Below are positions 4,214 through 26,087 of a stretch of DNA of 64,000 nt, one piece after another. The DNA is from Parcubacteria group bacterium (lineage in GTDB: Bacteria > Patescibacteriota > Minisyncoccia > Moranbacterales > GCA-2747515): NCBI GenBank assembly GCA_041660065.1, contig JBAZXC010000001.1, positions 392,535 through 456,534 of the forward strand, given 5' to 3'. The notes under the pieces are model-generated. The model was not told the DNA's origin. It ran no database searches and saw only the letters and a list, made by a program, of their open reading frames with translations. The number at the start of each line of letters is the position of its first letter. Position 1 is the first letter of the stretch. A program made the position numbers and the translations under genes.

Positions 4214-4216
4214 TTG

Positions 4217-4287: not shown

Positions 4288-4295
4288 AATTTTTA

Positions 4296-4550: not shown

Positions 4551-4568
4551 AATTTGAATTTATTTCAC

Positions 4569-4731: not shown

Positions 4732-4785
4732 CACGCCGTATCCACATTCTATTGTAACGATTATTTCATTTTTTGTCACATTCTG

Positions 4786-4858: not shown

Positions 4859-4982
4859 ACAATCCTTTACAGATAAAGCCGACACTTTACAGTAATCGGC
4901 CGCATCCGCTATGTCTTCCTCTGTATTTCTTTCGTTTGGGTTTACACTGAGCAAGTCCCTACTTGTGGGACGAGTCGACGTG

Positions 4983-5065
4983 TGGGCCGGGAGGGATTTG
5001 AACCCCCGAAGACCGAAGTCGCCTGATTTACAGTCAGGTGCATTTGACCACTCTGCCACCGACCC
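4983..5065 (-). tRNA. tRNA-Tyr (anticodon GTA), long variable arm
   Basis: Acceptor GGGTCGG/CCGGCCC. Anticodon stem CCTGA/TCAGG with loop CUGUAAA. Long variable arm. T-loop TTCAAAT. Confidence 0.8.
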
Positions 5066-5142
5066 AGTTCAATATCAAATATAAAAAATGAAGAATCAAA
5101 AATATTTTTGATATTTGATTTTTCATCTTTAATTTAATACTG

Positions 5143-5215
5143 AGCCACTTGTCAGACTCGAACTGACGACCTGCGGTTTACAAAACCGATGCTCTACCAA
5201 TTGAGCTAAAGTGGC
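5143..5215 (-). tRNA. tRNA-Thr (anticodon TGT)
   Basis: Acceptor GCCACTT/AAGTGGC. Anticodon loop UUUGUAA. T-loop TTCGAGT. Confidence 0.8.
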
Positions 5216-6616: not shown

Positions 6617-6674
6617 ATAGCTTTGAATTTTAGAATTTTGAATAGAAAATTTTATCCTCTCCCGTTATCTACAT

Positions 6675-7433
6675 TTATCGCAACGCTTTACAAAAATGCG
6701 CCAAAATCATCGTCAGTGAAGAGATGGCATCGTCATTTGCAGGGATTGGATATGCAATACCCTCTGGATTGACGTTTGTATCCGCCAAAGCGATCACGGG
6801 GATCTTCATATGCATTGCTTCGCGAATCGCAAGTTTGTCCAATTCGACATCCGTCACAAAAATCGCGCCCGGCAGGTCTTTCATGTCTGCAATACCTCCC
6901 ATACGACGATCCAGTTTTTGCGCTTCTTCTATTTTTTTCATTTGCTCAAATTTCGTGTATTTTTTTATCTCACCTTTTTCGATCTGTTCTTGCAAACGCA
7001 CCATGTATCTGGTACGGCGACGAATATTGCTGAAATTGGTGAATGTGCCCCCAAGCCATCTCTCTACAACAAACGGATTACCTGTATATTTTGCAATATC
7101 GGTCACGAGGTCATGCGCTTGTCTCTTTGTGCCTACAAAGAGAATTTGTTTACCACTCTTTTTTACTGAAGCAATAAATGCCAACGCCTCTTTCATTCGT
7201 TCAACCGTCTTTGCAAGATCAATGATGTTGATATTGTTTCGTGTCGTATAGATGTATTGATCCATGCGCGGATTGCGACGTGATTTTTGATGACCAAAAT
7301 GAACACCCGCTTTGAGGAGTGATGCCATCGTTAGGTCAAGACTATTGAGATCGATCGTCTCAAAAATGTTCTTTCGTGGAGTTTTTGATTCCACGACACC
7401 GTCTTCTGTCTTTATGGTCTTCTTTCGTGCCAT
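6675..7433 (-). CDS. rpsB: 30S ribosomal protein S2
   Basis: HFGHQKSRRNPRM and typical S2 core. Immediately upstream of tsf. Confidence 0.9.
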   Translation of the reverse strand: MARKKTIKTEDGVVESKTPRKNIFETIDLNSLDLTMASLLKAGVHFGHQKSRRNPRMDQYIYTTRNNINIIDLAKTVERMKEALAFIASVKKSGKQILFVGTKRQAHDLVTDIAKYTGNPFVVERWLGGTFTNFSNIRRRTRYMVRLQEQIEKGEIKKYTKFEQMKKIEEAQKLDRRMGGIADMKDLPGAIFVTDVELDKLAIREAMHMKIPVIALADTNVNPEGIAYPIPANDDAISSLTMILAHFCKALR

Positions 7434-7650
7434 ATGTTTTATCCTTAAAAATTATACGCATATATCACCGATGCAACCCTTACCGGATCGGGACGAAAAA
7501 ATCCTGCCGGCAGGAATGGATTGCGTGAATATACGCTTGATAAATAATGCACCAATATTAGCGCATAATCAGACCCTTGTCAATTTTTGTTTCTTATGTT
7601 AGGCTGTGTGGAGTATATTAAGTACATATTAACCACTTGACGCACATCCT

Positions 7651-7941
7651 ATGAAAAAAGGCACTCATCCAAAATATTATACACAAGCGATCGCAACATG
7701 TTCTTGCGGCGCAGTTTTTGAAGTTGGAAGCACGCGAGAAAAAATTTCCATTGAAACATGCTCGCAATGCCATCCAATCTACACAGGCAAGCAAAAAATC
7801 GTTGATGCGACAGGACGCGTTGACCGATTCAAAAAACTTGCAGAAAAAACGCAAAAGGCGAAAGAATCACGCAAAGTGGCAAAAAAAGTAGCAGTAAAAA
7901 AAGTGGTAAAATCAAAGAAAAAGATCAAGACTGCTGCGTAG
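7651..7941 (+). CDS. rpmE: 50S ribosomal protein L31 with Lys-rich C-terminal extension
   Basis: [10 protein letters not shown]...CSCG...[10 protein letters not shown] zinc-ribbon L31 core plus a roughly 30-aa K/A-rich tail. Confidence 0.85.
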
Positions 7942-7954
7942 CGATACTTCCCAA

Positions 7955-7992
7955 AAAACACCGCCTTTTCTATGTCGGTGTTTTTATTTTGA
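7955..7992 (+). terminator. rho-independent terminator after rpmE
   Basis: Hairpin acaccg...cggtgt followed by a T-run. Confidence 0.5.
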
Positions 7993-8040
7993 CGACGTGA
8001 CCATTGTGCCATATAGTACATAGTAGAAAGAGAAATTGAA

Positions 8041-9132
8041 TTGAAAATTATGCAAGACATCATTGATAAAGTAAAAAAAGAATATCGTGAGATCGGCGAA
8101 GAACTCGCCAATCCGCTCATCGCACAAAACACAGAACGCATGATCGTTCTGAGCAAAAAACAGGCAGAGATGAATGCCGTGATCGCCAAGATCGATGAAT
8201 TCGAACATGTGGTCAATGCCATGAAAGAAAATGCCACGATCATCAATACAGAATCTGATCCGGAACTCACACAAATGGCTGTAGAGGATAATGTTTCTTT
8301 GGCACAAAAAAGCGAACAGCTGGGGAAAGAATTGGAAATACTCCTTTTGCCTGCAGATCCGCGCGACACCAAAAATGTTATCATGGAAATCCGTGCCGGT
8401 GCCGGCGGTGACGAGTCAGGTCTGTTTGCCACTGATTTGTTCCGTATGTATTTGCGTTTTGCCGAGATCAACAACTGGAAAACATCCATCCTCCATTCCA
8501 ACGTCACCGAAGTAGGGGGCTACAAAGAGGTGATTTTTGAGATCGAAGCGCCTGCCGGTGCCACGTCTGTTTACAAGCTCATGAAATATGAGTCCGGCGT
8601 TCACCGCGTACAGCGCGTACCAGAAACAGAAAAGCAAGGTCGCATCCACACATCTACCGCCACAGTCGCCGTTTTGCCGGAAGCAGAAGAGGTGGAGATC
8701 GACGTCAATGAAAAAGACCTCCGTATTGACACATTTGCGTCATCCGGTCCCGGCGGTCAAAGCGTCAATACGACAATGAGTGCGGTACGCATCACACATA
8801 TTCCCACCAATACAGTCGTTTCTTGCCAAGATGAAAAGTCTCAGCATAAAAATAAAGCAAAAGCGATGAAGGTGCTTCGATCGCGCCTCTTGCAACTCGA
8901 AGAAGAAAAATATGCCAAAGAGATCGGCGATGCGCGCCGAACCCAAGTGGGCACTGGTGACCGCAGTGAAAAGATCCGGACATACAATTTCCCGCAGGAC
9001 CGCATCACCGACCATCGCATCAAACAAAGCTGGAGCAATATAGAAAGCGTCCTCAATGGAAATCTCACCAATATTATTCGCGCACTGCAAGAAGAAGACA
9101 TCCGCATCAAACTTGCCAAACAGGCATCATAA
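8041..9132 (+). CDS. prfA: peptide chain release factor 1
   Basis: GGQ motif ([11 protein letters not shown]) and an RF1-type PxT tripeptide (PET in [12 protein letters not shown]). Confidence 0.85.
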
Positions 9133-9154
9133 AACTCTTCGGAGATCTTACAAA

Positions 9155-9195
9155 AAAACGCTCCTCCCGTTATGGGAAGGAGCGTTTGTTTTACG
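9155..9195 (+). terminator. rho-independent terminator after prfA
   Basis: aaacgctcctcccgttatgggaaggagcgttt hairpin plus T-run. Confidence 0.55.
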
Positions 9196-9367
9196 CAGTA
9201 TAAAACCTACACACTCATATGATACATGAGGTTGAAAATCAAAACGATCGCAAGAATGACCACAAGAAAAAGATAGATCACTTCTTGTTTCGATTGAATT
9301 ATCCCGTTTGTTTTTTCGTCCAAAAATGTTCGTAATCGATCAAGCATATTTTTTTTATTTTAAAAAA

Positions 9368-9820
9368 TTAAAACCCTGCAAAAACCCTGCACGAAGAACC
9401 ATCTGCCGGCGTCACATCTGTAATAACCTCACATCCGTCTTTTTTGCAACAAAACACTTCAGTGTCATGCGGCGTTGGTGGCACAGCACCATTTGTGCGA
9501 TAAACCGAAAAATAATATTCTCCAGTGCCAGAACTAGATCCTGCCTGCGTAGCATATGCGAAATCCAATTTTGCAAGATCAGACCATTGCGCATCAGAGC
9601 CCTCACAAACAGACCCCTGCAAACCTGGTAAAGATATTTCCTTTTTTACCAATACGCACTCTTCGATCTTTGGAAGTAGCTGACGTGCTTCCGCATAGGC
9701 AGCTGAGCGATTTGCCTTGACCTTTGCTGTGGATAATGCAACCAAAACATTCGCCGCCAACAATCCGATAATTGCCATGATAATTAAAAGCTCAATGAGC
9801 GTAAACCCTTTTTTATGCAT
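9368..9820 (-). CDS. type IV pilin / prepilin-type N-terminal cleavage-methylation domain protein
   Basis: MHKKGFTLIELLIIMAIIGLLA is a class III signal peptide. Confidence 0.8.
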   Translation of the reverse strand: MHKKGFTLIELLIIMAIIGLLAANVLVALSTAKVKANRSAAYAEARQLLPKIEECVLVKKEISLPGLQGSVCEGSDAQWSDLAKLDFAYATQAGSSSGTGEYYFSVYRTNGAVPPTPHDTEVFCCKKDGCEVITDVTPADGSSCRVFAGF

Positions 9821-9868
9821 ACCTTGTCATAAATAATTACTTAAAAAATATCCTTACAAAACATTATA

Positions 9869-11200
9869 TCATACTACATCGTCTCTTGCCCATATACTAT
9901 GATTTTTTCGTAAATGATAAAAAGCGATTGCTCCACACACTGTTCGATATGTGATCAATGCGATAAGAAACACCGTGATCGTCACTGTTTGTGTCACATA
10001 TGCAATGCAAATGATACTTGCATAGGTAATGAATCCAAATACAAATGACAGATTGTACCGTTTATACCCCTTTTGCGATATACTTGATAAGATCCACCCA
10101 TAAAGCGATGCGAAGAAATGCACACCCATATACACCGCACCTAAAAAGATCCATAGCCACACAAAAGGATACCCATTACCATACAGCGCAACAATACAAG
10201 CGATGCCCACTCCGGAAAAAAGAACAACCGGCAAGAACGTACGAATACACATGCGATCAATTTTTGCGATCACCGATTGGATACGATCGGCATGCATACG
10301 CACCGATGGAAAAAACACACTGACAAAAAGTTGTGTGATCCGTGCACCGATCACTACGATTGCCGTAAAATATACCGCATATACACCGGCAGTTTTCACG
10401 CCAAGCACAGCAGCAATGATCAACGTGTCCGCATTTTTGATCACGCCATTGACCACCGCATTAATGAGACCAAACGCATTATAATGGAATACTGTGTTCA
10501 TTTTTTCCACATCCCATGCCTTCACCGTCAACAGGCGACGTGTAGCAATTCCTCCTGCAATAGTAAACGCTCCCCCTGCAATCGTCAGTGCCAATGCATA
10601 ACTTGCAAAAGTACGATCATGCATCCCCCACATAAAGATCACCAAAAAGATCACGACAACGATTCCCTCTCCGAGTCGCAAGATCGCCTGCCACACAAAT
10701 TTTTCATCTGCACGTAAAAATGCGTCCATCATGCGTTTTGTAGAAAATACCACCGCAAAACCCAATGCGTACAAAAAAACACCTTGTGACATCTGTACAA
10801 AATGAAAGAAATGAAAAACACTTTCCGCCAAGAGTGAAAAAACAATGATGTTGATCCCAAACATCAAAAGAATTGATGACATGAGTCCTTTTTTATCTTC
10901 TTTTTTTTCTGAAAGAAAATACAACGCCGATACATCCAGCTCAAGCACATACAATAATGACACGATTTGCGCAATAGAGAAAAATACGGAATACAGCCCA
11001 TATTCCTCTGGACCCAAGACGCGCGCAACAACAACATTGGCAGAAAAAAGCAACGCAAAAGCACCTAACCCGCCCACAATCGATACGGTAAGATTTTTGG
11101 CGAACTGCATTGTTCGTGCTCCCGCATCGCCACCGATCACGATCCTATGGATGACATTGGCGAGTCGATGCATTTTTTCTCTTGTAAACAGTGTATTCAT
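9869..11200 (-). CDS. polysaccharide biosynthesis protein / oligosaccharide flippase (Wzx-like, MOP superfamily)
   Basis: 443-aa polytopic membrane protein with the N-terminal pattern typical of Wzx/MurJ-family flippases. Sits in a glycosyltransferase cluster. Confidence 0.6.
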   Translation of the reverse strand: MNTLFTREKMHRLANVIHRIVIGGDAGARTMQFAKNLTVSIVGGLGAFALLFSANVVVARVLGPEEYGLYSVFFSIAQIVSLLYVLELDVSALYFLSEKKEDKKGLMSSILLMFGINIIVFSLLAESVFHFFHFVQMSQGVFLYALGFAVVFSTKRMMDAFLRADEKFVWQAILRLGEGIVVVIFLVIFMWGMHDRTFASYALALTIAGGAFTIAGGIATRRLLTVKAWDVEKMNTVFHYNAFGLINAVVNGVIKNADTLIIAAVLGVKTAGVYAVYFTAIVVIGARITQLFVSVFFPSVRMHADRIQSVIAKIDRMCIRTFLPVVLFSGVGIACIVALYGNGYPFVWLWIFLGAVYMGVHFFASLYGWILSSISQKGYKRYNLSFVFGFITYASIICIAYVTQTVTITVFLIALITYRTVCGAIAFYHLRKNHSIWARDDVV

Positions 11201-12462
11201 GTTGTGTGTTTTTTTATCGCTTTATCATATATATCCATGAGACGTGTATAGTATATTTTTTCATTATTGATCGCAGATACGCGTTCGCGTGCTGACACGC
11301 CCATACGTTCACCCAATGACGGATCATCGATAAATTTCTGCATTTTATCCGCAAGATTTGCCGCATCTTCCGACTGAAAAACATACCCGCTCACGCCATC
11401 TTCGATCATCTCCTTTGTGCCTCCAGCATCCGATACAATCACCGGTGTTGTACATGCCATGGATTCCGAGATTGCGATCGGTGAATTGTCATACCACACT
11501 GACGGAAGTACTGCAACCGCCGCCTGTTGCATCAGCATAAACCATTCCCGACTGCCCTTTTGATGAAATCCCGCAAAACTGATCACATCAACCAGTCCCT
11601 CTTTGTGCACAAGATCACGTAATCTATTTTCTTCCGGACCTTTGCCGGCGATCACACAGCGCCATTCACCCAGCGTACCGCGTTCTTTGAGTTTTTGTAT
11701 CGCCGCAATCAATACCGGCAAACCCTTCTCCTGTGCGATCCGCCCCATATACAAGAAGAAATGACTCTTTGGAACGGTTTGCTCGGGATACGACCGAAAA
11801 TTCAACACGTTGCGCAAAATCACGATCTTCTCTGCGGGTATACCATACGTCACACAGATATTTCGCATAAATTCGCTTGGCGCCACAAAGATGTCCACAT
11901 CATCATAAAACCGACGCCATCGATTGACATAACCCTCGATCATACCAACGAAACTTTCACTCCATGAATTGTCAATTGATTTGTTCAAAAAGATTTTGTA
12001 ATATGACCCGTTCTGGCATGAATTATCGATTTTGCCATGGGAAAACAATGTGTAATTTGGACAGATCGCGTGATAATCCGATAATTTAAATACGATTGGC
12101 ACACCGTGTTTTTTGAGTACGCGAAAAATGCCCGGCGTCAAATAATGATAAATATTGTGCACATGGGCAACATCCGGTTTCTTTTTTTGGAGCAAGAGAT
12201 CCAATTTTTTCATTGCTTCACGATTGTAGAGCACGCGTGGCAAAAGCCGTATTTTTTGCCACATATTCTTGGTAGCGCGAATATCGAAATGCTCGGCAAA
12301 ATACACGTTCTCACGCGCATACTCATTATCCGGATCATGCATTGCAAAAACCATCACTTCATGTCCCATTGATTCAAGAAGTTCTTTGGTCTCAAAAAAA
12401 GCCGACACTGACCCGCCACCGCGTTTTTTACTGTAATATTTGTGTATTTGTAATATTTTCAT
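11197..12462 (-). CDS. glycosyltransferase family 4 (GT-B, group 1)
   Basis: C-terminal EX7E-like GT4 core (GRIAQEKGLPVLIAAI...VIAGKGPEE). Confidence 0.75.
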   Translation of the reverse strand: MKILQIHKYYSKKRGGGSVSAFFETKELLESMGHEVMVFAMHDPDNEYARENVYFAEHFDIRATKNMWQKIRLLPRVLYNREAMKKLDLLLQKKKPDVAHVHNIYHYLTPGIFRVLKKHGVPIVFKLSDYHAICPNYTLFSHGKIDNSCQNGSYYKIFLNKSIDNSWSESFVGMIEGYVNRWRRFYDDVDIFVAPSEFMRNICVTYGIPAEKIVILRNVLNFRSYPEQTVPKSHFFLYMGRIAQEKGLPVLIAAIQKLKERGTLGEWRCVIAGKGPEENRLRDLVHKEGLVDVISFAGFHQKGSREWFMLMQQAAVAVLPSVWYDNSPIAISESMACTTPVIVSDAGGTKEMIEDGVSGYVFQSEDAANLADKMQKFIDDPSLGERMGVSARERVSAINNEKIYYTRLMDIYDKAIKKHTT

Positions 12463-13909
12463 ATCTCTATCATCTCATCCATGTTATAATAAAGCAATAT
12501 ACAAAAAAAGTCTAAAAAATAATCCCTCCATTATGAACGATGATCTCTCAATTGCCTCAAAAGAAACCTCCGGCATACTCCTCATAATTGGCCTCGTCAC
12601 CATTCTTCTCGTTCACATCTTTTTTCTCCTTCCCTTTCCCATCACGTGCGGTGTGACAGCGCTTTATGTGCTTGTAATCTTTTTTCTCCATCGACCGCTA
12701 GAAGGATTTTTTGCACTGCTTGTCATACGTGCATCTGTTGATTTTTTGGATACATATTTTTCCGTCTCTTTATCCGAAACCATCACGTTAAATGTTGCGG
12801 CGATCCTCGGTCTGCTTCTCATCGCCATGACATGTGTACTTGCACTTACACATCGCAAAGACCTGTTTCGTCGCCCACTTGTTGTATCATTTGGACTTTT
12901 TATCATTTTCAGCGCAGGAAGTATCTTTTATTCCATTGACCAAGGTGCGACATTTGAAGAAACCTCCCGCATCATCAGTATTTTTGCCGCATTTCTCGGT
13001 ACGCACATCTTGTGCATAAGAGTACCACACGCACGTAAAACACTCATCACAGCGACACTTTTTGCAGCGATTCTCCCGCTGACATTTGCAATTTTTCAAC
13101 TGGCATCCGGTACCGGTTATAGCGACAATACCGGTACAGAAGGACGTCTCTTTGGCACATTCAAACACCCCAACTCTTTTGCATCTTTTCTTTTGGTCGT
13201 GATCGCACTGCTCACGTATCGTGTCTTTGAAACATTATCCCAGCGGTACAACCGCAACACTGCTTTGACACTCCTCGGTGTTACTGTGACCATTCTTCTC
13301 CTCACCTTCAGTCGTGGCGGTTGGTTTGCATTTTTGATCTTTTTTGGACTTTTCGGACTTTTGCGCGCACCAAAAGTGATCTTTGTTATTATTGCGATCG
13401 CAGTCACATTCTTTTTTACATCACAAACTGTTCACGATCGCATTGAGGATATTTACAATCCACCGGCCGACAGTTCGATCCGTTGGCGCATTCAGCAATG
13501 GAAAAATGCTGTTGCCGCGTGGCAGTTATCACCGATCTATGGCTATGGCGCCGGTACGGAAATTGCGATCTTTGAAAAAGAACAGGGCTATTACGCAGGC
13601 AATCCCTACACGCACAATGACATCATCAAAGTACTCCAAGAAACAGGCATCATCGGCACCGGCTTATTTTTACTGCTTCTCGGTGTCACATGCATCCGCT
13701 TGATCAAAACATATCACGCGACCCAAAACGCGAGCGAGCGACTCTTTGTATTGATCATTCTCCTGCTCTTTATCGCACAGATCGGCTTTGGCATGAGTTC
13801 AAACATCTGGCGTGGTACAGCAGTGCAATGGTTTCTCTGGGCACTTATTGCATGTGCGCTTTCATATAATGCACCACGCAAAAACTCACATCAGCTACAC
13901 AAAAATTAA
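12440..13909 (+). CDS. O-antigen ligase / polymerase family membrane protein (Wzy_C-like)
   Basis: Polytopic, with a TFSRGGW motif and the large periplasmic loop typical of O-antigen ligase-like proteins. Confidence 0.6.
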   Translation: MCICNIFISLSSHPCYNKAIYKKSLKNNPSIMNDDLSIASKETSGILLIIGLVTILLVHIFFLLPFPITCGVTALYVLVIFFLHRPLEGFFALLVIRASVDFLDTYFSVSLSETITLNVAAILGLLLIAMTCVLALTHRKDLFRRPLVVSFGLFIIFSAGSIFYSIDQGATFEETSRIISIFAAFLGTHILCIRVPHARKTLITATLFAAILPLTFAIFQLASGTGYSDNTGTEGRLFGTFKHPNSFASFLLVVIALLTYRVFETLSQRYNRNTALTLLGVTVTILLLTFSRGGWFAFLIFFGLFGLLRAPKVIFVIIAIAVTFFFTSQTVHDRIEDIYNPPADSSIRWRIQQWKNAVAAWQLSPIYGYGAGTEIAIFEKEQGYYAGNPYTHNDIIKVLQETGIIGTGLFLLLLGVTCIRLIKTYHATQNASERLFVLIILLLFIAQIGFGMSSNIWRGTAVQWFLWALIACALSYNAPRKNSHQLHKN

Positions 13910-13933
13910 CTCTTTGGTCATACCAAAACGAAA

Positions 13934-13965
13934 GGAGCAGGTTACAAACCTGCTCCTGCAAAATC
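13934..13965. repeat. hairpin repeat GGAGCAGGTTACAAACCTGCTCCTGCAAAATC (copy 1; likely terminator-like)
   Basis: Perfect 9-bp stem. A related copy lies at 21211-21244. Confidence 0.5.
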
Positions 13966-14023
13966 CCACTGTCCTTCGGACATCTCCCTTTACAAAAGGA
14001 AGAGTCTTCCATGTTTAGCATTT

Positions 14024-14563
14024 CTAATAAGCTGCAACCATTGACAATCGATCGATCTCTTCTTGCAATAAGTCCATGTTCTTTTGGATCATGGTTTTTT
14101 GTTCTTTGGTAATAGTCGGCGCAAAGACCGCTTGCTCCATACTGCGGATGTATTGCCTGATGTACAATGGTGTGTTGCGCGCCTCGTCAAAATACGCCAC
14201 CGTGCGTCCTTGTGGCGGAAAGAACATGTGCACAGAATTATCCTCATCATAATAGATCGTCTCACGATCGATCTGCGCCGCGATCTCATCAAGCGTACGC
14301 AATTGTCGCATGAATTCTTCTTTATCACTGTCAGTCATTTTTGTTTTTACATTCATCAGTAACGCCTGAGATGTCTGCATCTCATTTACCATCGTGTAGA
14401 GACGCGTCATTTTTGCGTGCATGATGTTGTAGTGATCTTGTTGCTCCTCGCGAATGAGAAGTTCACCATACGCCAATCCAGCATTGCACATCAAAAAAAC
14501 GATGTATATGGTACACGCACCTGCAAAAAGTATTCCCGTAATTAAAAGTATTTTTTTCATCAT
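14024..14563 (-). CDS. hypothetical membrane-anchored protein
   Basis: Likely start at MMKKILLITG. Signal or TM helix, then a soluble domain. Confidence 0.4.
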   Translation of the reverse strand: MMKKILLITGILFAGACTIYIVFLMCNAGLAYGELLIREEQQDHYNIMHAKMTRLYTMVNEMQTSQALLMNVKTKMTDSDKEEFMRQLRTLDEIAAQIDRETIYYDEDNSVHMFFPPQGRTVAYFDEARNTPLYIRQYIRSMEQAVFAPTITKEQKTMIQKNMDLLQEEIDRLSMVAAY

Positions 14564-14616
14564 AATTGATTTGATATATATGCCATTTTTTCTTTTGTAT
14601 TGAGACTTGCACATTT

Positions 14617-14686
14617 GTCATCCTGAACTCGTTTCAGGATCTAGTTAAGCCATACATGCGAGATCCTGAAACAAGTTCAGGATGAC
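14617..14686. repeat. nested-palindrome intergenic repeat (GTCATCCTGAACTYGTTTCAGGATCT arms)
   Basis: Two 26-nt arms in inverted orientation (1 mismatch). Each arm is itself a hairpin. Copies at 26028-26087 and a partial copy at 63985-64000. Confidence 0.7.
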
Positions 14687-14795
14687 ATGGCTATTAGATA
14701 AGCTCTAGCACACATCCATCTTATCAATTTTCTGCTACAAAAGAAAGAAGCCCTGCAAACTGTTATAGTTTACAGGGCTTCGGTTGAGGTCCGTG

Positions 14796-15713
14796 TTACT
14801 TATTCGACACATACGTTTCCGTTTGTGCCGCCCAGAGAGCTCTGAACACATTGTCTACCTTGAGGGTAGCAATGTAGTCGTAGATCCGCGAGCCATCCCC
14901 GTTAAACATCCAACGGGGATTGAGGATCCTGATGTCAATCAGCTCCTGTTCGTACCAAGCAAGCTTGGTGCCGAATCCGCCTTGGAGATATCCGGAGTCC
15001 TTACCCCAGAGGTACCCGAGATTGGCGTTGAATGTGGGAGTCAGTCTCCAATGATTGACATCATCGAGATACCAGTCATAGAGATCTGCCGACCCAAACA
15101 ACACGAATTGACGATTATCGTACGGGTCATACTTCCCCTTAGAGTCATGATAACTAACATTATAAGGATGGATGTAGTGAATCCCCACTTCCCAGAATGG
15201 AAGAAGTTTCTCACCGGCACCGCGCCCTGACTCATCGCCGTAACGCAGACGAGCCTCGATCTGACTCTCGGTCTGCTGTGAGCTAAGCTTGGAATTCCAG
15301 CTATCAGTTTCCTGACGCAGAATACCCAGCTCTGCTTCGGTTTCGCGATGCCTGTCGTGATGATATACACCACTCACGCCACCGCCAACCGTCCTATAGT
15401 CGGAATTAGACCATTGGCCTTTTTTCCGATCATAGGTGTCAGCACTCCCTTCGGTATAAGTCACATACCCTCCAGCATCCAACTTGCCCATACGGAGTGG
15501 ACGGACACGTGCCTTGATGTTTGTGCTCTCACCATGCCGATCCTTATCCCCTCCACCAAATGGTGAGAACTTGGAATGAGTAATGTCGAAAGCGTCCACG
15601 GATTGTATTCCGCGGAATTTCACTTTCGGCTCCGGCGGTTGCTCTTCATCACCAGCATACGCCGATGATGCAATGAGCAAACACATTGCGATCAAACATA
15701 AAAGTTTTTTCAT
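14796..15713 (-). CDS. secreted beta-rich protein (possible barrel/porin-like), GC-elevated
   Basis: Signal peptide MKKLLCLIAMCLLIASSAYA. Aromatic- and Gly-rich, with alternating-hydrophobic strands. GC is higher than the flanks. Confidence 0.5.
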   Translation of the reverse strand: MKKLLCLIAMCLLIASSAYAGDEEQPPEPKVKFRGIQSVDAFDITHSKFSPFGGGDKDRHGESTNIKARVRPLRMGKLDAGGYVTYTEGSADTYDRKKGQWSNSDYRTVGGGVSGVYHHDRHRETEAELGILRQETDSWNSKLSSQQTESQIEARLRYGDESGRGAGEKLLPFWEVGIHYIHPYNVSYHDSKGKYDPYDNRQFVLFGSADLYDWYLDDVNHWRLTPTFNANLGYLWGKDSGYLQGGFGTKLAWYEQELIDIRILNPRWMFNGDGSRIYDYIATLKVDNVFRALWAAQTETYVSNK

Positions 15714-15718
15714 AATCA

Positions 15719-16366
15719 CTACCTCCCTATTTGTCTTTGATATTCCTTCATAAAATCCCATGTGCTGGCGACTTTGATGACGGCATTGTTTTCCTGTTGT
15801 GCCACTTTAGAAGGCTTTGATACCTTTTGTGGCTTTTCAACAACAGCATCTTTTTTCTCCACCACCTGCACAGTTTTGACAACTGGCGATGGCGAAGGAG
15901 CTAGCGTTTCCGGCTTTGCAATGACAACCTTCTCCGGCGCCCTTGCAATAACCTCTTGCTTTGGCACTGGTGGCGGTTGCACGCGTGGTTGTGCGATCTC
16001 TTGCGAGACTGCACTTCCACGTTGTTCGCCTGCTTCCAGCGTGACGATCTGACGCGTTGCCGCACCGGAACTGTTCACACTGATCGCAAGAGCCGTGATT
16101 GGCACTTCTGTACTTACTGGTGTGATGAGTCGCCACCATGTACGATTTTTTTCATCGTACCCGATGACATCACCTTTCACCGTGTAGCGCACAGATGCAC
16201 TACCGATCTTGCCATTCTTCCACTGCGCTGTATCAGACGACAGGAGCGAACTCCATGCCGACTGCACGACATCAAGACCTTTTAACGTATCTTGCGTCAC
16301 AGTGGCAGCGAGTAGCATGTGTGGCAGAAGCCACACGAGAAAAGATATAACAAGTATTCTTTTCAT
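15719..16366 (-). CDS. secreted protein with Pro-rich C-terminal region
   Basis: Signal peptide MKRILVISFLVWLLPHMLLAA. PPPVPKQ...PSPSPVVK low-complexity linker. Confidence 0.5.
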   Translation of the reverse strand: MKRILVISFLVWLLPHMLLAATVTQDTLKGLDVVQSAWSSLLSSDTAQWKNGKIGSASVRYTVKGDVIGYDEKNRTWWRLITPVSTEVPITALAISVNSSGAATRQIVTLEAGEQRGSAVSQEIAQPRVQPPPVPKQEVIARAPEKVVIAKPETLAPSPSPVVKTVQVVEKKDAVVEKPQKVSKPSKVAQQENNAVIKVASTWDFMKEYQRQIGR

Positions 16367-16367
16367 T

Positions 16368-17387
16368 CTACATCCCTCCTGTCATGTTTTGAATATGGGC
16401 TTTCTGATACATCCCGAGCAGAAGCTCGAACTGTTCAGAAAAATCCTTCCGTTGACACATACCACGAGCCGTCATCGACTCCCATGCCGTGTCCATAAAC
16501 GACGCAATACTGCCATCCACCATACTTGACAGAGCACCCAGCCCCATCAATCCCGGCGTACCACCAAGTGGCAACCGCAACCGTGACACAAATTTCTGCC
16601 ACGGCGTGATAAGGGGGTTTTTGGCAAGCAATTTCTCCATATCCTCTTCGGACAGGTAACTTGCCACAATTTCCCCATCAGGCAACTTCAACTGATATCC
16701 GATGTCAGAAAGCATCTTCTTGCGAAAAGCCTCCCACTTCGGATCACCGTCGACGACAGCAATCTCTTGCACATCATCAGTGGTCATCACAACCCCGAAA
16801 CCTTCAATACGCTTTTTCCACGTATCGTTGATCACAGGAATTGTCTTGCCAAGTTGCTTCATGAGCTCGATCCGATATTTTGGTTCTTTTTCGAATTTCG
16901 CCCAATCATAGGTTTGCTCATCTACGATCGTGTACTCGTACCCAGGTACGGCACCGATCGGAGACGCCAGCCACACGCCACCATCCTTATTGGTAACTGC
17001 AAAAGCGTATTCACCGCGTAACATATCATCCTTGTCACCAAGGCCAACACACTGCGCAGGGATCATCGCCCACGGATTTTTGTCACCAAATGCCTGACTC
17101 GGCACAGAATAACAAAATCCCTTGACCATCGGTGCATTTTCATCTTTCAATGACACACCGACGAATGGGAATACACCCGAGAATGACTTATCCATCTCGA
17201 CAAGAAATCGCGATGGTACAACACCGGTAAAATTAAAAATTTTACCACCGGCTTTTTCCAGCTGGTCGGGATGCATTACCGTCATCCCTTGCTCTGGTTG
17301 TGTAAGTGCAAAATTTGGCATTTGACTAGCACAGCCAGTCAAAAACAAAAACCCTAAACAAATAGAAATCACTGTGATATTTTTCAT
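16368..17387 (-). CDS. lipoprotein (hypothetical)
   Basis: Lipobox LFLTGCAS after a signal peptide. 2-nt gap to the downstream gene. Confidence 0.55.
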   Translation of the reverse strand: MKNITVISICLGFLFLTGCASQMPNFALTQPEQGMTVMHPDQLEKAGGKIFNFTGVVPSRFLVEMDKSFSGVFPFVGVSLKDENAPMVKGFCYSVPSQAFGDKNPWAMIPAQCVGLGDKDDMLRGEYAFAVTNKDGGVWLASPIGAVPGYEYTIVDEQTYDWAKFEKEPKYRIELMKQLGKTIPVINDTWKKRIEGFGVVMTTDDVQEIAVVDGDPKWEAFRKKMLSDIGYQLKLPDGEIVASYLSEEDMEKLLAKNPLITPWQKFVSRLRLPLGGTPGLMGLGALSSMVDGSIASFMDTAWESMTARGMCQRKDFSEQFELLLGMYQKAHIQNMTGGM

Positions 17388-17625
17388 GATCCTTCTCCTT
17401 TTATGTAGATTTATAAAATTTTTAAATTAACACGAACCATTGTGACCTGTGTAGATCACGCATAAATACACAATTTTTTCTGTATTTATGCGCCATATCT
17501 CTACAGATTGTTAACCGTTTATTTTATCACAAAATCAAGAAAAAGTCAATAGCTGTGGCAAAAAGAAAAAACCGGGGTAATCCTATTAAGAATTACACCC
17601 GGCTCGTGATCACTGACACTGCTAC

Positions 17626-18042
17626 CTACTTATACAGGTTGGCTGGCACGCTGTAGAGCGGTCCCCTGTTGACTGTGAGATGGTGCCCACTTGGTCCACC
17701 ATCTTCCGATCCATCTTGCCGGAAAGTGTATCCCCGACTTTTCAGCCAGCCAATGGCTGATTCATGGGACGGCAGGTCTCTTGCGCAGTCCAGGTGGATC
17801 ATCCATCCATCTACGTTGGCGAGAGTCTTGACCTTGTATCCGGAACCTTTCTTAATGATTTCGAATGCGTAGTCATAGTCCTGCGCCCATCCGTCTGCGC
17901 GGAACCTTTCACCACACGACAGATTTTCCGTGAATGTGACGTCGGCATTCCTGCTATTTCTTGCAGGCGCCGGTGAGGCACACGCAGAAACGATCAATAC
18001 CGTCAACATCATAAAAAAGAACCCTGTAACTTTTGTCTTCAT
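17626..18042 (-). CDS. lipoprotein (hypothetical)
   Basis: Start MKTKVTGFFF preceded by aaggagag. Lipobox VSACAS. Confidence 0.5.
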   Translation of the reverse strand: MKTKVTGFFFMMLTVLIVSACASPAPARNSRNADVTFTENLSCGERFRADGWAQDYDYAFEIIKKGSGYKVKTLANVDGWMIHLDCARDLPSHESAIGWLKSRGYTFRQDGSEDGGPSGHHLTVNRGPLYSVPANLYK

Positions 18043-18162
18043 GACATTCTCTCCTTGTTTGTATTTTTTTAATATCATGCCATCATGCGATAGCACAAAA
18101 AAAATTGGTCTGTCATACTTTAATAGCATAACAGACCATTATACACCTTTTTAGAGTCCTTG

Positions 18163-19035
18163 TCAAGGGGCTCTGGGAAGGCTTTTCTTGAAAACCAGTG
18201 ACTCACTGCTTTTGGGCACTGTACTCACTGGCACCGTTGATGTCGGCGATCCGCTGATGATAAAGAGAGAAATCGTATCATAACTCCCTCGATGATCAGT
18301 GAATGGCTCTTGTGTACCTGGCTCAAACACTTGTTTGTAACTTTCGCCAGGATATGTCAACTCTGGTAATTTTGCCAAAATAGTGGTTTCGTTACCATAA
18401 TTGTGCATACAACTACCATCCGGCCATGCGCGAGGATAAAAAACCCCTCCACTCACACGACCACGCTTAGCTTTGTACTGAATGCCCTTTGATTTTGTCG
18501 GGCGATACTGCACTTCGATAGCATCAGCGCCATTTGGTTGCAACGCCATGATCGCATCTGGTACACGTCCGCTGAACTCACCTTCATCACACGTCGCCAC
18601 AATTGCAGCGGATGCAGGATGTTTCACAGCAGGCGTCGGTGGTGGTGCAACGGAAACTGTTGTAGTAACCAGTGGCTGTAAAGCCTCACCCCATACACGC
18701 TTGAATTGACTGCCCTGTGTCGGACAAACATCAAGCAGGGTTAATCCTGATTGAGGATTTTTGAGATAATTCTGCAATTTGCGCAGAAGCTTATCACTGA
18801 TATCAATATTTTCCTTGCCACCAGGTCCGGTAATGATCACCGTTCGACCTGTTCCCGATACTCGCACAATTTCCGTGCCGATCGTGAACGATCGAGTAAG
18901 TTTTGCGGCAACATCACCGCGTTGCTTTTCTGCAACAATTGTGACTGTTCTCGCCGCATACGCCGATCTGGCCATGCCAACTAACAGCACACAAAACAAC
19001 ATTACAATACATACACGCCACGTTTTCATACCCAA
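18163..19035 (-). CDS. secreted protein (hypothetical)
   Basis: Signal peptide ending in SAYAARTV. No recognised domain. Confidence 0.5.
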   Translation of the reverse strand: MGMKTWRVCIVMLFCVLLVGMARSAYAARTVTIVAEKQRGDVAAKLTRSFTIGTEIVRVSGTGRTVIITGPGGKENIDISDKLLRKLQNYLKNPQSGLTLLDVCPTQGSQFKRVWGEALQPLVTTTVSVAPPPTPAVKHPASAAIVATCDEGEFSGRVPDAIMALQPNGADAIEVQYRPTKSKGIQYKAKRGRVSGGVFYPRAWPDGSCMHNYGNETTILAKLPELTYPGESYKQVFEPGTQEPFTDHRGSYDTISLFIISGSPTSTVPVSTVPKSSESLVFKKSLPRAP

Positions 19036-19217
19036 CCTCCCCTATTTAAATTTGGTATTTTCCATACCTTTTTTTTCAAGAACAACCTTTGAAGTCAGAC
19101 CTCTTCCGACTCTGCATGTGGCGCAACTATTTTGCGCCACACAGCAGAATTGTGATCTTTTGAACACTTTTCTACGGATAGACAAGTGTATCACAGATCA
19201 CGGGTGCATGCAATCTC

Positions 19218-20036
19218 TTATGCGTTTCTGGCACGAAAATCACTGATCCGCTTGTGTAATTCATCCATTTCCGGATCAAATTCGATCGTAGCCTCACTGT
19301 TTTGAAAGTGTTCCAAAACAACATCCTTTTCTTCATCTTCCTCCTGAACATAAGGAATCGTAGCTATCGGTTCATATACCTCTTCCCGTACTTCATTCAC
19401 ATAATTATTTGTTTTTTTGCCGCCAAATCGTACTGCGGGGAAAAAGTACACGATCACCATCGCGATCATCAAGCCGCCGATTGCACCGGCAATCGTGTTT
19501 GGCGCGATGCGTGGCACTGTCGGTCGCAGGGGTGTGTTTGGTCCGTCGATCAGACGCACTTCCACACGCTCGCCACCACCGTGATACGCCTCACTGTTTG
19601 TCGTCAGAACATATGCGATCGCCTTGGCTGTTTCTTCTGCCGTTTTGCGCGACCCATCATATACACTAATCTTGAGGATGCCGGTATTATTCACTTTCTT
19701 TACATCAATGAATTTTTCCCATTCTTTTTGACGTTGTTCCGGATCGCGGGAAAATGTACGTCGCGCTTCAAACGGCGCGTCTTGCACGCTGTTGAAAAAC
19801 GATGTGGTATAGATCGCCTGTGCAAAGATATTGCTCAAAAATTCCGCAGATTTGGTCGCGCTGAACGCGTCAACCTTTTCATCGGCTTGTTTTTGGACAA
19901 CGATCATTTGTATATCGCTCTGGAATTTTGCCGGAAGCAAAGCGGATATGATAAATGCACCAAGTCCAAAGATAATCGTAAATACACAGATCATCTGCCA
20001 CCGCTCCAGTATATTTTTTATTGTTGTGTGATTCAT
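19218..20036 (-). CDS. Wzz-like chain-length determinant / polysaccharide co-polymerase family protein
   Basis: N-terminal TM (ICVFTIIFGLGAFIISALL), a periplasmic domain, and a C-terminal TM (GAIGGLMIAMVIVYFF). This is the PCP topology. Confidence 0.6.
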   Translation of the reverse strand: MNHTTIKNILERWQMICVFTIIFGLGAFIISALLPAKFQSDIQMIVVQKQADEKVDAFSATKSAEFLSNIFAQAIYTTSFFNSVQDAPFEARRTFSRDPEQRQKEWEKFIDVKKVNNTGILKISVYDGSRKTAEETAKAIAYVLTTNSEAYHGGGERVEVRLIDGPNTPLRPTVPRIAPNTIAGAIGGLMIAMVIVYFFPAVRFGGKKTNNYVNEVREEVYEPIATIPYVQEEDEEKDVVLEHFQNSEATIEFDPEMDELHKRISDFRARNA

Positions 20037-20045: not shown

Positions 20046-20996
20046 TTAATTACTTTTAATGGAAAAATCTTTACCGATATAACTGCCGAAACCTTTTTGC
20101 GATTCCCAGAGTGATGTACAGCTTTTTGCCACATACTTCTGGAACGTCAGACGGATCTTTGGCGATTTCTTGCGCATTTCGAGATATTTGGTCTTTGCGA
20201 CATAATCCTGAAATGCATAGAAAAATGCGATCATAAATCCATAGCGTCCATCCAGAAACCCCAATCGCAACACAAACATATACACAAATCTGATCAGTGG
20301 TGTAAACGGGATAAATGTCCATAGATCTTTGACCACTGCTTTTGCATAATACGGATTGGTCATAAACATCGCCAATGAGATCTTTGTCATACCGTTTTCA
20401 TACACGCGAATCATATAATTTGCCTGCCATGAAGAATATCGGTTGAATTTCTCAAAAAATTGATCCAATGATCGATCGCTGTAATGCAAGATATCTCCTG
20501 CGATATTTTTCATACGATCTTTTGCAAGAATGATATGTGCATGCACATTGCGATCCTCATAACGACATTCCTTGCGGAAAAGTCGAATGTTGTAAAGCGG
20601 ATATCGTCCGCCCCATCGCAAGAACTTCCCCAAGAAATAATGCTTGCGTGCAATACCAAAACCATCGAATTTTTCTATTTCTTCTGATGTAAGCATTGCT
20701 TGGATCGTTTTTTGCAATTGATCCGTAACAACCTCATCACTATCCAAAAGAAGGACCCACTCATGCGTTGCTTGCGGGATTGCCCAGTTCTTTTGTTTTG
20801 CGCTGTAAACATATTCATGTTGCAAAACACGCGCGCCAAGATCCTTCGCAATTTCCACAGTACGATCTGTCGAGAAAGAATCCACAACCAAAACCTCATC
20901 CGCCCATGTTACAGAGCGAATTGCCTGTGCGATCAAATCCTCCACGTTAAATGTAGGAATGATCACAGTGATCTTTTTTTGCAGTTTTTGCGCCAT
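20046..20996 (-). CDS. glycosyltransferase family 2
   Basis: VIIPTFNVEDLIAQAIRSV...LLLDSDE GT-A core. Confidence 0.75.
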   Translation of the reverse strand: MAQKLQKKITVIIPTFNVEDLIAQAIRSVTWADEVLVVDSFSTDRTVEIAKDLGARVLQHEYVYSAKQKNWAIPQATHEWVLLLDSDEVVTDQLQKTIQAMLTSEEIEKFDGFGIARKHYFLGKFLRWGGRYPLYNIRLFRKECRYEDRNVHAHIILAKDRMKNIAGDILHYSDRSLDQFFEKFNRYSSWQANYMIRVYENGMTKISLAMFMTNPYYAKAVVKDLWTFIPFTPLIRFVYMFVLRLGFLDGRYGFMIAFFYAFQDYVAKTKYLEMRKKSPKIRLTFQKYVAKSCTSLWESQKGFGSYIGKDFSIKSN

Positions 20997-24159: not shown

Positions 24160-24981
24160 TTATTTTACAAGAGTTCCGTTCTGGGCAAAACGACGGTTTT
24201 CCACTTTTTCATCAGCGACAATCTGTCCATCACTGATACGCAAAATCCTTTCTGCATGTTCTGCTGTTTCGTGTTCATGCGTGACCAAAATGATCGTATG
24301 TCCATGCTTGTGCAACCCCTGCAAAATGCGCAGAACCTGTGTACCCGACTTGGAATCCAAATTACCCGTCGGTTCATCGGCAAAAATCACATCCGGATCA
24401 TTGACCAGCGCCCGCGCGATCGCAACACGTTGTTTTTCTCCGCCAGACAACTGGTGCGGCATATGATCAATCCGATGCAACATATCCACATCCTCCAGCG
24501 CTTTTCTCACACGCTCTTTTTTGTGTGTTGACCCCCACAAACGTCCGAGAAATGTTTTTTTATCCTCTGTATCCTCACTATAAAAATCGTATAGAAGTGG
24601 TAGCTCTACGTTCTCTGACACGCTCACCCGAGACAACAGATTAAATGACTGAAAAACAAAACCGATTTCCTGATTGCGGATCCGCGCGAGCTCCTCATCA
24701 TCGAATTCCAAAGCATTTTTTCCGCGAAATGAATATGACCCACCAGTCGGCCGTTCCAATAAGCTTAGCACATGCATAAATGTTGATTTGCCGGATCCGC
24801 TCGGTCCCATGATCGACACAAACTCTCCTCGTCGAATATCACACGACGCATCACATAATGCCTGTGTTTTTGTTTCACCCATATCATACACCTTTGTAAG
24901 ATGCCGGCATGAGATGATCACTTCCTGCACCATAGAATTATTTGGTTTCATCATATATTGCAAAAATTTCCTGTCCTTCAC
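24160..24981 (-). CDS. ABC transporter ATP-binding protein (MacB/LolD-like)
   Basis: Walker [13 protein letters not shown] signature [15 protein letters not shown]. Walker B IFADEPT. Confidence 0.85.
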
Positions 24982-25933
24982 TCAACCCGCTTACGATCTC
25001 CACATTGCCATTATCTCCTTCCAATCCGCGCGAAATGTATTGCTTTTTATATGTGTCCTTGCCGTCAGCAACATAAACAAAATCACCCGCATCATCCGCG
25101 CGAACAAATCGAACCGGAATTGCCAAGACAGATTCCTTTTGTGCTACGATAATATCCACATCAACACTCATGCCCGGACGCATCCGCTCTTCCATATGAT
25201 CCATTGTGAGGAGAGTGCGATAATATGTCACGTCTTGGATCTTTACAGCCTCAGGGTCAATCTGTGTGATCTGCGCGCGAAAAGTCTCATCATCAAAAGC
25301 ATCAAATGTGATCTGCGCTTCTTGTCCTACATGCATCTTTGGGATATCGGACTCAGACATAAACGCCTCAATGTGCATTGCCGTCGGATCGATCACACGC
25401 ATCACCGTACCACTTGCCACCTCTCCCACACGTCCATCTTGTTGTGTGACAACACCATCGATCGGCGACACGAGTTCTTTTTTCATCCACTGCGATTGAG
25501 TTGCTGATAATTGCGCACGTGCTTGCTCCACATCTTTTAGGATATTATATCGTTCTTCCGGTTTATAGTCCTCCCATTTTCGCCGCGCAAGTTCCTCCGT
25601 AGAAATCGCTTTTTCCACAGTTACCCTCGCACTGTGAATTTGTGCTGCCAATTGATCACTGTCGATACGGATCATCGTTTGACCTTTTTTGACCTCATCA
25701 CCTACATCCGCACCGATCCATTCGATCACACTCGGCACCTCAAAAGAAAGATTGGCATACGATATCGGCTGAACTTCTCCACTGTCGCTCACCGTTTCCA
25801 CAACGGTGTCCTTACCGACAATTATGGATTCATGTTGTTGATCACTTGATTTACCGCCAAACCGTTGCCACAAAAAAAAGATGACAAAAATGGCAATAAG
25901 TCCGTATATGATTTTTTTGATATGTTTTTTCAT
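24938..25933 (-). CDS. HlyD/MacA-like periplasmic adaptor (membrane fusion protein family)
   Basis: N-terminal TM. Biotinyl/lipoyl-like and beta-barrel segments typical of efflux adaptors. Confidence 0.65.
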   Translation of the reverse strand: MKKHIKKIIYGLIAIFVIFFLWQRFGGKSSDQQHESIIVGKDTVVETVSDSGEVQPISYANLSFEVPSVIEWIGADVGDEVKKGQTMIRIDSDQLAAQIHSARVTVEKAISTEELARRKWEDYKPEERYNILKDVEQARAQLSATQSQWMKKELVSPIDGVVTQQDGRVGEVASGTVMRVIDPTAMHIEAFMSESDIPKMHVGQEAQITFDAFDDETFRAQITQIDPEAVKIQDVTYYRTLLTMDHMEERMRPGMSVDVDIIVAQKESVLAIPVRFVRADDAGDFVYVADGKDTYKKQYISRGLEGDNGNVEIVSGLSEGQEIFAIYDETK

Positions 25934-26027: not shown

Positions 26028-26087
26028 GTCATCCTGAACTTGTTTCAGGATCTCACATCTTAGATGCTGAAACAAGTTCAGCATGAC
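26028..26087. repeat. nested-palindrome intergenic repeat (second copy, variant right arm)
   Basis: Left arm gtcatcctgaacttgtttcaggatct. Right arm agatgctgaaacaagttcagcatgac. Confidence 0.7.

Follow-up and report, generated by a model that had tools for sequence, protein, structure and literature searches.

A conserved envelope gene module with a predicted 12-stranded β-barrel in the surface-glycan locus of Moranbacteria

The OmpM/SlpA proteins of diderm Terrabacteria, the large clade to which the Candidate Phyla Radiation (CPR) is also assigned, consist of a wall-binding module, a spacer and a C-terminal β-barrel (PMC10628300; 10.1101/2021.05.31.446380). The same order recurs in most members of a family of predicted barrel proteins whose named members are all Patescibacteria; one member is encoded by a block of five genes (g5, g4, g3, g2 and g1; positions 14790-19040) in a 64,000-nucleotide stretch of DNA, hereafter the window, from a Parcubacteria group bacterium (assembly GCA_041660065.1, contig JBAZXC010000001.1, positions 392,535 to 456,534). 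The block is a real, conserved and undescribed envelope module. It comes closest to OmpM/SlpA in design, to autotransporters and intimin in fold, and to the outer-membrane polysaccharide export (OPX) translocons in genomic context. Since it lacks defining features of OmpM/SlpA, autotransporters and OPX translocons, it is not filed here as a member of any of them. The reading favoured below, with a probability of about 0.5, is that the block is the vertically inherited, lineage-specific envelope part of a Moranbacteria/Parcubacteria surface-glycan locus, and that its barrel is tethered to the wall and lies in a lipid layer.

The five consecutive genes are all located on the minus strand and fill the block, both in the list of open reading frames (ORFs) and in the gene call. 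Each product begins with a hydrophobic signal segment, and two of them, g3 (LTGC) and g4 (VSAC), include a lipobox, as judged by eye. None of the five is matched by Pfam or NCBIfam. An earlier note on this DNA had described them as exported and domain-less, the 3'-proximal one being aromatic- and glycine-rich and barrel-like, and had proposed a novel cell-surface module. This description holds: the exported proteins belong to previously undescribed families, and g1 contains 13.1% F+W+Y and 10.2% Gly and is a barrel according to both AlphaFold2 and Foldseek. The close spacing of three genes was also correctly noted, with intergenic gaps of 1 nt (g3/g2) and 5 nt (g2/g1) instead of the 2 and 5 nt given there.

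The AlphaFold2 model of g1, built on a 14-sequence alignment, reaches a predicted local distance difference test (pLDDT) score of 85.6 and a predicted template modelling (pTM) score of 0.79, with most 10-residue blocks above 90. It comprises twelve antiparallel strands of 10-21 residues each, followed by a C-terminal helix. Foldseek returned 56 matches in the PDB at E<1e-3, and among the 50 listed all are integral outer-membrane barrels. The top matches (E 2e-8 to 1e-5, TM score 0.40-0.59) are Hbp (2e-8), AIDA-I, BrkA (TM score 0.59), EspP and NalP, and further matches include PgaA, PelBC, intimin, FadL and OpcA. IMG labels the protein “opacity protein-like,” and the g1 family profile found no match among the PDB sequences. 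Ten of the twelve strands bear a belt of 4-5 alternating hydrophobic residues. Across the 14 homologues, the putative lipid-facing positions have a mean hydropathy of +1.73, are 74% hydrophobic and show a conservation of 0.59; the opposite face has a hydropathy of -1.87, is 21% hydrophobic, and is better conserved (0.75), with many invariant Arg, Lys and Gln residues, eight Arg/Lys among them. Such a pattern is that expected of a barrel exposed to lipid, with a putatively functional polar lumen.

The fold could also be right and the protein not embedded in lipid, in which case g1 would be an abundant, β-rich building block of the wall or S-layer of a monoderm cell, with its hydrophobic face engaged in lattice contacts, and the block would encode surface-layer proteins. 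CPR bacteria have indeed been described with one membrane and a wall of murein, without an outer membrane (PMC11809585; PMC10160955). The GC content at the third codon position (GC3) is raised in most relatives' blocks, which is compatible with abundant expression, the operon has a predicted strong promoter and a stabiliser-like 5' hairpin leader, and the last strand of g1 is not C-terminal. However, all the significant structural matches listed are integral membrane barrels, and hydrophobic belts of 4-5 residues that vary in sequence form the pattern of a lipid contact, not of specific lattice contacts. A non-lipid lattice role is considered unlikely.

The same 12-strand fold is found in the β-domains of type Va autotransporters (PF03797), which provide the best structural matches of g1. 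In these proteins a linker helix precedes the barrel. In g1 the barrel is preceded only by the signal peptide, without a helix, there is no passenger on either side, and only a 20-residue helix follows. Relatives carry LysM or the putatively wall-binding g2 N-domain in the passenger position. The intimin/invasin proteins (type Ve), represented among the fold matches by intimin, are a further comparison; intimin combines LysM with a 12-strand barrel. A type V-like unit, in which the C-terminal barrel would export the N-terminal module (LysM, the g2 N-domain, or g2 in trans) to the surface, would account for these matches and for the order found in relatives (signal peptide, N-terminal module, spacer, C-terminal barrel), which is that of type Va; two relatives also weakly match PF03797. 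By contrast, the “passengers” are small wall-binding domains whose ligand would lie beneath any outer layer, and the window barrel, which carries no passenger and has no PF03797 match, has a conserved helix after it and none before it. This mechanism is improbable.

Searching 1.84 billion representatives with a profile (E<=1e-3) yields only 68 clusters for the wider barrel family; among 5.8 billion proteins, 14 clusters form the close g1 family. Most wider-family members are 400-700 residues long, with the barrel in C-terminal position. In the alignment of 69 members (the 68 clusters and the window protein), 31 have an N-terminal LysM, the weakest matches among them, and two are weakly matched by the Pfam family Autotransporter PF03797 (E 2e-4). 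All members whose source is named come from Moranbacteria, Parcubacteria or Patescibacteria, and the family so far appears to be restricted to CPR, as far as these named members indicate. No paralogue of g1 or g3 is present in the 64-kb window, and a partial scan of its ORFs revealed neither a barrel paralogue nor an Omp85-like protein. In the literature on barrels, porins and autotransporters of Patescibacteria and Moranbacteria, no description of the g1 family was found.

In most relatives the barrel gene begins with LysM or the putatively wall-binding g2 N-domain, followed by a spacer, and encodes a single polypeptide with the domain order of OmpM/SlpA; the window has two separate genes instead, g2 and g1. 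The N-terminal domain of g2 matches the N-termini of fused barrel proteins (phmmer E 3e-6 to 3e-3), and six close g1 homologues start with a domain that aligns to it. Since these homologues carry the g2 N-domain fused to the barrel, g2 and g1 together would correspond to a split “module-spacer-barrel” protein. The g2 N-domain itself was considered as a LysM and rejected (hhalign probability 0.1). One remote relative (locus L015) has a LysM in the protein encoded at the g2 position. OmpM/SlpA uses SLH for wall binding, whereas LysM or the new g2 N-domain occurs here, and no SLH domain was detected in g1, g2 or the 69 relatives. The barrels differ as well, that of OmpM/SlpA being a trimeric porin of 16-30 strands and that of g1 having 12 strands and an autotransporter-like fold. 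The window encodes peptidoglycan synthesis genes, so that a ligand for LysM is available.

Without exception, the gene of the lipoprotein g3 lies immediately upstream of the gene for the barrel or for the barrel's putative wall-binding partner. Its family contains 13 clusters among 5.8 billion proteins, with members 47-100% identical; relatives at about 35% identity are found in the remote loci L011 and L012, and more distant phmmer matches in L014 and L015. The invariant Cys residues and the conserved motifs HPD...E, NKDGGVW.ASPIG and ARG.CQRRD indicate a constrained extracytoplasmic protein. In NCBI, g3 and g1 are hypothetical proteins of a “Parcubacteria group bacterium” metagenome-assembled genome (MAG), encoded on a 469-kb contig, and the species-representative genomes with g3 relatives are assigned to “Candidatus Moraniibacteriota.” One Moranbacteria genome with the module is GCA_034522495.1, which has a 1.3-Mb contig, and SRR18595301 is one of the samples in which such MAGs occur.

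Twelve independent loci were compared, seven of them near and five remote (L011-L015). The seven near loci share the order GT2, Wzz-like, a variable segment, g3, g2, g1, g0, Wzy_C (on the opposite strand), GT4, Wzx, pilin and RF1. The core common to all twelve consists of g3, a wall-binding module (g2 or LysM), the barrel and usually a Wzz-like gene, next to a Wzy_C/GT4/Wzx glycan locus. Barrel identity in the remote loci is about 46% in L013 and 30-35% in L011 and L012, while L014 and L015 are matched by profile only. In L011 and L012, a g3-like protein and a LysM::barrel fusion are followed by GT2, Wzz, x5-type proteins (described below), Wzy_C and GT4. L013 contains g3 and a fusion of the g2 N-domain to the barrel, then Wzy_C, GT4 and Wzx. 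L014 and L015 contain a Wzz-like protein, a g3-like protein, a protein at the g2 position, a LysM::barrel fusion and a small secreted protein, after which L015 also has Wzy_C; the L014 contig ends before that point. The Wzz-like gene, which is the upstream neighbour of the block in the window, thus co-occurs with g3 and the barrel in four of the five remote loci, and Wzy_C adjoins wherever the fetched DNA reaches. The downstream neighbour g0 weakly resembles the polysaccharide chain-length-determinant family (E 0.007). Several glycan genes of the window received their Pfam labels by way of their L002 orthologues, to which the enzymes are 93-97% and the pilin 82% identical.

This context resembles the OPX/β-barrel translocons of Wzx/Wzy pathways, in which a barrel and an accessory exported protein are likewise linked to genes for a polysaccharide co-polymerase, Wzx and Wzy-family proteins (PMC9601211; PMC9603273; PMC12819527). 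PgaA and PelBC are among the fold matches of g1. The barrels of these translocons have 16-18 strands against 12 here, no tyrosine kinase is present here, g3 lacks Poly_export/SLBB, and CPR are not known to require export through a second membrane.

In the favoured reading, the g1 barrel would sit in a lipid-containing layer outside the wall, g2, whose place is taken by LysM in relatives, would tie it to the cell's own peptidoglycan, and the membrane-anchored lipoprotein g3 would pair with it. The barrel may then anchor, and/or provide a channel for, the glycan or the glycosylated surface material supplied by the adjacent Wzx, Wzy_C, Wzz-like and glycosyltransferase genes. The proteins g4 and g5 would be surface-exposed and fast-changing, arranged around a shared Cys-bracketed domain.

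Several observations weigh against this arrangement. CPR bacteria are regarded as single-membraned, having lost the outer membrane (PMC10160955; 10.1101/2021.05.31.446380; PMC11809585), and for bacteria described as monoderm, the difficulty is which lipid layer would house the barrel. The link to glycan export is one of guilt by association, and the twelve strands of g1 fall short of the 16-18 of known polysaccharide porins. The structure of g1 is a prediction from 14 sequences only, and no Pfam family, PF03797 included, matches it at E<=1. Substrates of the β-barrel assembly machinery (BAM) typically carry a C-terminal β-signal with a terminal aromatic residue. The C-terminus of g1 (...QTETYVSNK) lies after the helix and lacks such a residue, the last strand is not C-terminal, and C-termini vary across the family. 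As for g3, it is gene adjacency that suggests a partnership with the barrel. The AlphaFold2 model of this lipoprotein is poor (pLDDT 62, best in residues 35-240), no fold match was found in the PDB and no sequence match there is better than E 0.019. Pfam and NCBIfam detect no Poly_export (PES)/SLBB domain in g3, nor in g2, g4 or g5.

The difficulty of the lipid layer would be met differently by a host-directed device, in which a diderm host's outer membrane receives the barrel, LysM or g2 grips the wall of the epibiont or of the host, and the whole serves as an attachment tether and/or uptake pore, with g5 and g4 in contact with the host. In this way the presence of a membrane-type barrel would be understandable, the phylum having been described as dependent on hosts and bounded by one membrane (PMC11809585; PMC10160955). 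The long flexible spacers between wall-binding module and barrel also fit, as do the neighbouring surface proteins, which turn over fast and are cassette-swapped, as expected of host-range determinants. Nevertheless, the module lies within the locus for glycan assembly of the cell itself, and its lipoprotein g3 is attached to the producer's membrane. There is no sign of a host, or of secretion past the Sec signal, and no features of toxin-like or oligomeric pore-formers were seen. To our knowledge, there is no precedent for a monomeric 12-strand barrel that inserts spontaneously into a foreign membrane. A device aimed at the host is also unlikely.

Regarding the origin of the block, the earlier note had proposed a horizontally acquired island, marked by raised GC and bounded on one side by a palindrome. 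The GC rise is real, although smaller than the 48-54% against 38-40% stated: the block has 47.5% GC against 41.6% in the rest of the window (42.0% for the whole). It ranks at the top of all 4.25-kb windows in a sliding-window scan, about 2.6 standard deviations over the mean. Windows of 500 bp within it range from 40 to 51%, the immediate flanks from 41 to 47% and the neighbouring genes from 41 to 45%. The values at codon positions 1, 2 and 3 are 0.54/0.44/0.50 in the block and 0.52/0.35/0.42 in the 39 other window genes tabulated. The rise is therefore mainly at position 2 (0.44 against 0.35 ± 0.04) and in part at position 3 (0.50 against 0.42 ± 0.06). The block proteins are enriched in P, G, S and W and depleted in I, E, N and F; with this amino-acid content and the background codon usage, 45-49% GC is already expected in the block genes. 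The proposed check of GC and codon usage confirms a genuine difference, which mostly reflects protein composition. A residual GC3 excess persists in g1, g3 and g4 and may be linked to expression; the genes for ATP synthase, S2 and EF-Ts in the window have a GC3 of 0.43-0.55, overlapping the block.

The same excess recurs in relatives, in block against flanks: 38.1 vs 28.9% in L005, 39.1 vs 30.7% in L007, 40.5 vs 31.0% in L010 and 41.2 vs 35.1% in L004. GC3 is also raised in the block of most relatives, more strongly in the AT-rich ones (0.35 vs 0.19 in L005), but not in L011. An excess found in nearly every relative, whatever the GC of the genome, would be a standing property of the genes and not the scar of a recent import. 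The identity matrices of g3, g2, g1 and g0 group the relatives as those of GT2, Wzz, Wzy_C, GT4 and Wzx do. At the block borders there are no mobility genes, integrase, tRNA gene, or direct or att-like repeats. The palindrome is real, but is not an island boundary, since a strong terminator parts it from g1, it adjoins g0, and a second copy lies at 26031-26084.

A recent foreign origin for a surface or host-interaction system would be consistent with the block being the highest-GC 4.25-kb stretch, with its orphan-like proteins, and with the raised synonymous divergence (dS) and replaced cassette relative to L002. It is opposed by synteny that extends over twelve loci, even where identity is only about 35% or lower, by the congruent groupings of block and flanks, by a GC excess that nearly all relatives share and that is due in large part to amino-acid composition, by the Patescibacteria source of all named family members, and by the borders without integrase, tRNA or direct repeats. 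Synteny in relatives, which the earlier note had itself named as evidence against a foreign source, is found in all near relatives. Foreign origin is thus highly improbable, and the block appears to be an inherited envelope gene set.

One of these relatives requires comment. The contig carrying L005/L009 (CAZHQB010000011.1, GCA_964534895.1; 25.5 kb) comes from a MAG labelled “uncultured Micavibrio sp.” and includes a full Moranbacteria-type module; its flanks have about 29% GC, and the contig shows a CPR-like order of the dcw (division and cell wall) genes. It is probably a mis-binned CPR contig.

Inheritance of the set does not preclude exchange of its alleles. Relative to L002, the closest of the relatives, the flanking proteins are 92-98% identical, with a dS of 0.36-0.55 and a ratio of non-synonymous to synonymous divergence (dN/dS) of 0.03-0.12, whereas dS reaches 1.23 in g3, 1.17 in g1 and 0.71 in both g2 and g0 (dN/dS 0.12-0.25). 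Nucleotide similarity to L002 is continuous over 6370-17551 and resumes from 19071. The segment between, 17552-19070, which holds g4 and g5, has no nucleotide counterpart there, its place being taken by an unrelated gene for a 349-aa protein, x5. The pair L007/L010 shows no contrast in divergence between block and flanks. High dS and a replaced cassette relative to L002, together with the lack of such a contrast in L007/L010, point to a replacement in one of the two lineages. Exchange of alleles and cassette between related Moranbacteria, as at surface-antigen loci, seems the best reading of these comparisons. At such loci (O-antigen, capsule, S-layer and outer-membrane protein allele islands), conserved flanks bracket a divergent segment. 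Here the flanks are 93-97% identical in amino acids and the divergent segment 69-79%, with a dS about 1.5- to 3-fold higher and a non-homologous cassette in addition. Unlike at those loci, the exported proteins vary here and the sugar-transferase genes stay conserved.

In a search of 5.8 billion proteins, g5 matched only itself; partial matches were found in L010 (35%), in L013 (46% over 87 aa) and to the C-terminal domain of the L011 x5 protein (E 2e-5). g4 is 50% identical to a protein in L010 and weakly matches the L011 x5 C-domain (E 0.012). The secreted x5 proteins contain a divergent LysM-like segment (hhalign probability 88%), short coiled-coil repeats and a Cys-bracketed C-terminal domain, and it is this last domain that g5 would share (residues 147-235). 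A hidden Markov model of the domain matches g4 and g5 marginally (E 0.006 and 0.017), so that the homology proposed for both depends on the bridging pairwise matches (g5 E 2e-5, g4 E 0.012). Both L011 and L012 also have x5 paralogues that consist of the Cys-bracketed domain alone. The genes g5 and g4 apparently form a cassette that can be swapped between related strains.

The block is predicted to form three transcription units, the g3-g2-g1 operon, g4 and g5 (Table 1). Seven relatives whose proteins are only 50-74% identical agree with the operon promoter in the whole -35 hexamer and at most positions of the -10 element. The transcript would begin with a leader of two hairpins, located about 45 nt upstream of the g3 ribosome-binding site (RBS). 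Of the 20 pairs given by RNAalifold, 8 show compensatory changes; the share of paired cells is 99.2%, compared with 91% in shuffles and 27-57% after sliding of the structure, and G-U pairs occur on the sense strand. No Rfam family matches the leader. The leader model finds matches only in front of g3, in the seven near relatives, and no further copies in the window or the remote loci. A candidate operator shared upstream of g5 and g3 (GTGATCT...GATCACAAT) was dropped, as it is not enriched.

Table 1. Features of the block, its surroundings and the x5 genes of relatives. Promoters, hairpins and terminators are predictions.
Feature	Position	Strand	Description
g5	18163..19029	-	Secreted, 288 aa from ATG at 19029; ORF extends to TTG at 19035; RBS GGGGAGG
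g4	17626..18042	-	138-aa lipoprotein, lipobox VSAC, RBS AAGGAGAG; second cassette gene
g3	16368..17387	-	339-aa lipoprotein, lipobox LTGC, three further invariant Cys
g2	15719..16366	-	Secreted; N-domain of about 100 aa, Pro/Lys/Val/Glu-rich spacer of about 70 aa, conserved C-terminal tail
g1	14796..15713	-	305 aa; signal peptide (AYA/GD), predicted 12-stranded barrel, conserved C-terminal helix (residues 286-301)
g4 promoter	18166-18138	-	Perfect sigma-70 consensus TTGACA-17-TATAAT; consensus match only
Hairpin and T-run after g5 stop codon	18138-18106	-	Overlaps g4 promoter
g3-g2-g1 promoter	17549-17521	-	TTGACT, 17-nt spacer, TGnTAAAAT; consensus match and conservation
g3-g2-g1 leader	17491-17442	-	13-bp hairpin 17491-17460, then 7-bp hairpin 17459-17442
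g1 terminator-like hairpin	14781-14747	-	15-bp stem, then TTTCTTTTGT; 15 nt after g1 stop; operon end
Nested palindrome	14616-14687		27-nt arms, each holding 8-bp hairpin ATCCTGAA/TTCAGGAT; directly upstream of g0 start
g0	14024..14614	-	Membrane-anchored coiled-coil, one N-terminal transmembrane segment; adjoins g1 in all near relatives
Wzz-like polysaccharide co-polymerase	19218..20036	-	Two transmembrane segments; PF02706 E 9.8e-6; TIGR01006 E 1.2e-11
GT2 gene	20046-20996		On the other side of the block from the Wzy_C, GT4, Wzx and pilin genes
Wzy_C-family ligase/polymerase	12440-13909	+	Pfam via L002 orthologue
GT4 glycosyltransferase	11197-12462	-	Pfam via L002 orthologue
Wzx-type flippase	9869-11200	-	Pfam via L002 orthologue
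Pilin-like N_methyl protein	9368-9820	-	Pfam via L002 orthologue
x5 genes of relatives	L002 8524-9573; L004 8171-9184; L005 8552-9583; L012 11999-13132; L011 13207-14196

The nested palindrome belongs to a dispersed repeat, with units of the form ATCCTGAA-N5-TTCAGGAT within longer inverted arms. Its second copy (26031-26084) lies upstream of the gene at 24938-25933. Both window copies match the L002 equivalent (12646-12763), and the element is present at both corresponding L002 sites. It could be a repetitive extragenic palindromic (REP)-like element or a shared operator.

Other parts of the window have features of their own. The lowest GC (33-35%) is found at 1-4000 and 4117-5215, where an AIPR abortive-infection-type gene (2740-3969) and a Hypoth_Ymh gene (1813-2673) adjoin a cluster of four tRNA genes; this part makes a stronger candidate than the block does for an acquired defence islet. 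At 4117-4176, beside tRNA-Trp, a weak tRNA-like Rfam match (32.6 bits, just over the gathering score) is not called by ARAGORN, and may be a tRNA fragment or degenerate copy, e.g., an integration scar. The pair tRNA-Ile(GAT) and tRNA-Ala(TGC), usually located within the 16S-23S spacer, stands alone at 58579-58946, with no rRNA gene in the 64 kb. A type IV secretion coupling-protein-like gene (40596-42374) combines TrwB/TraG domains with a C-terminal treble-clef zinc finger. Downstream of it, the minus strand next carries a 159-aa ORF with no assigned function and then alanyl-tRNA synthetase, and upstream a 422-aa ORF without Pfam match and a protein with sigma-70 region 4 and HARE-HTH (43725-44789). 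Nearly every 1-kb window has a negative GC skew, and the minus strand carries almost all of the genes, so that the whole window would lie on one replichore, with its genes co-oriented.

Current accounts of envelope evolution place CPR within a monoderm clade that lost the outer membrane together with its porins. The barrel family implies one of three things, namely an undescribed outer lipid layer, insertion into host membranes, or barrels that work in a non-lipid wall layer. Somewhat tentatively, a CPR clade may either build a lipid-containing outer layer or plant barrels in the host membrane, using peptidoglycan-tethered 12-strand barrels without the canonical BAM signal and a lipoprotein of new fold. 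If true, outer-membrane tethering would have survived as a remnant, or been re-invented, in a phylum taken as monoderm. For organisms whose surface biology is little known, the module also adds g3, the N-domain of g2 and the Cys-bracketed domain as new protein families, together with a conserved leader RNA.

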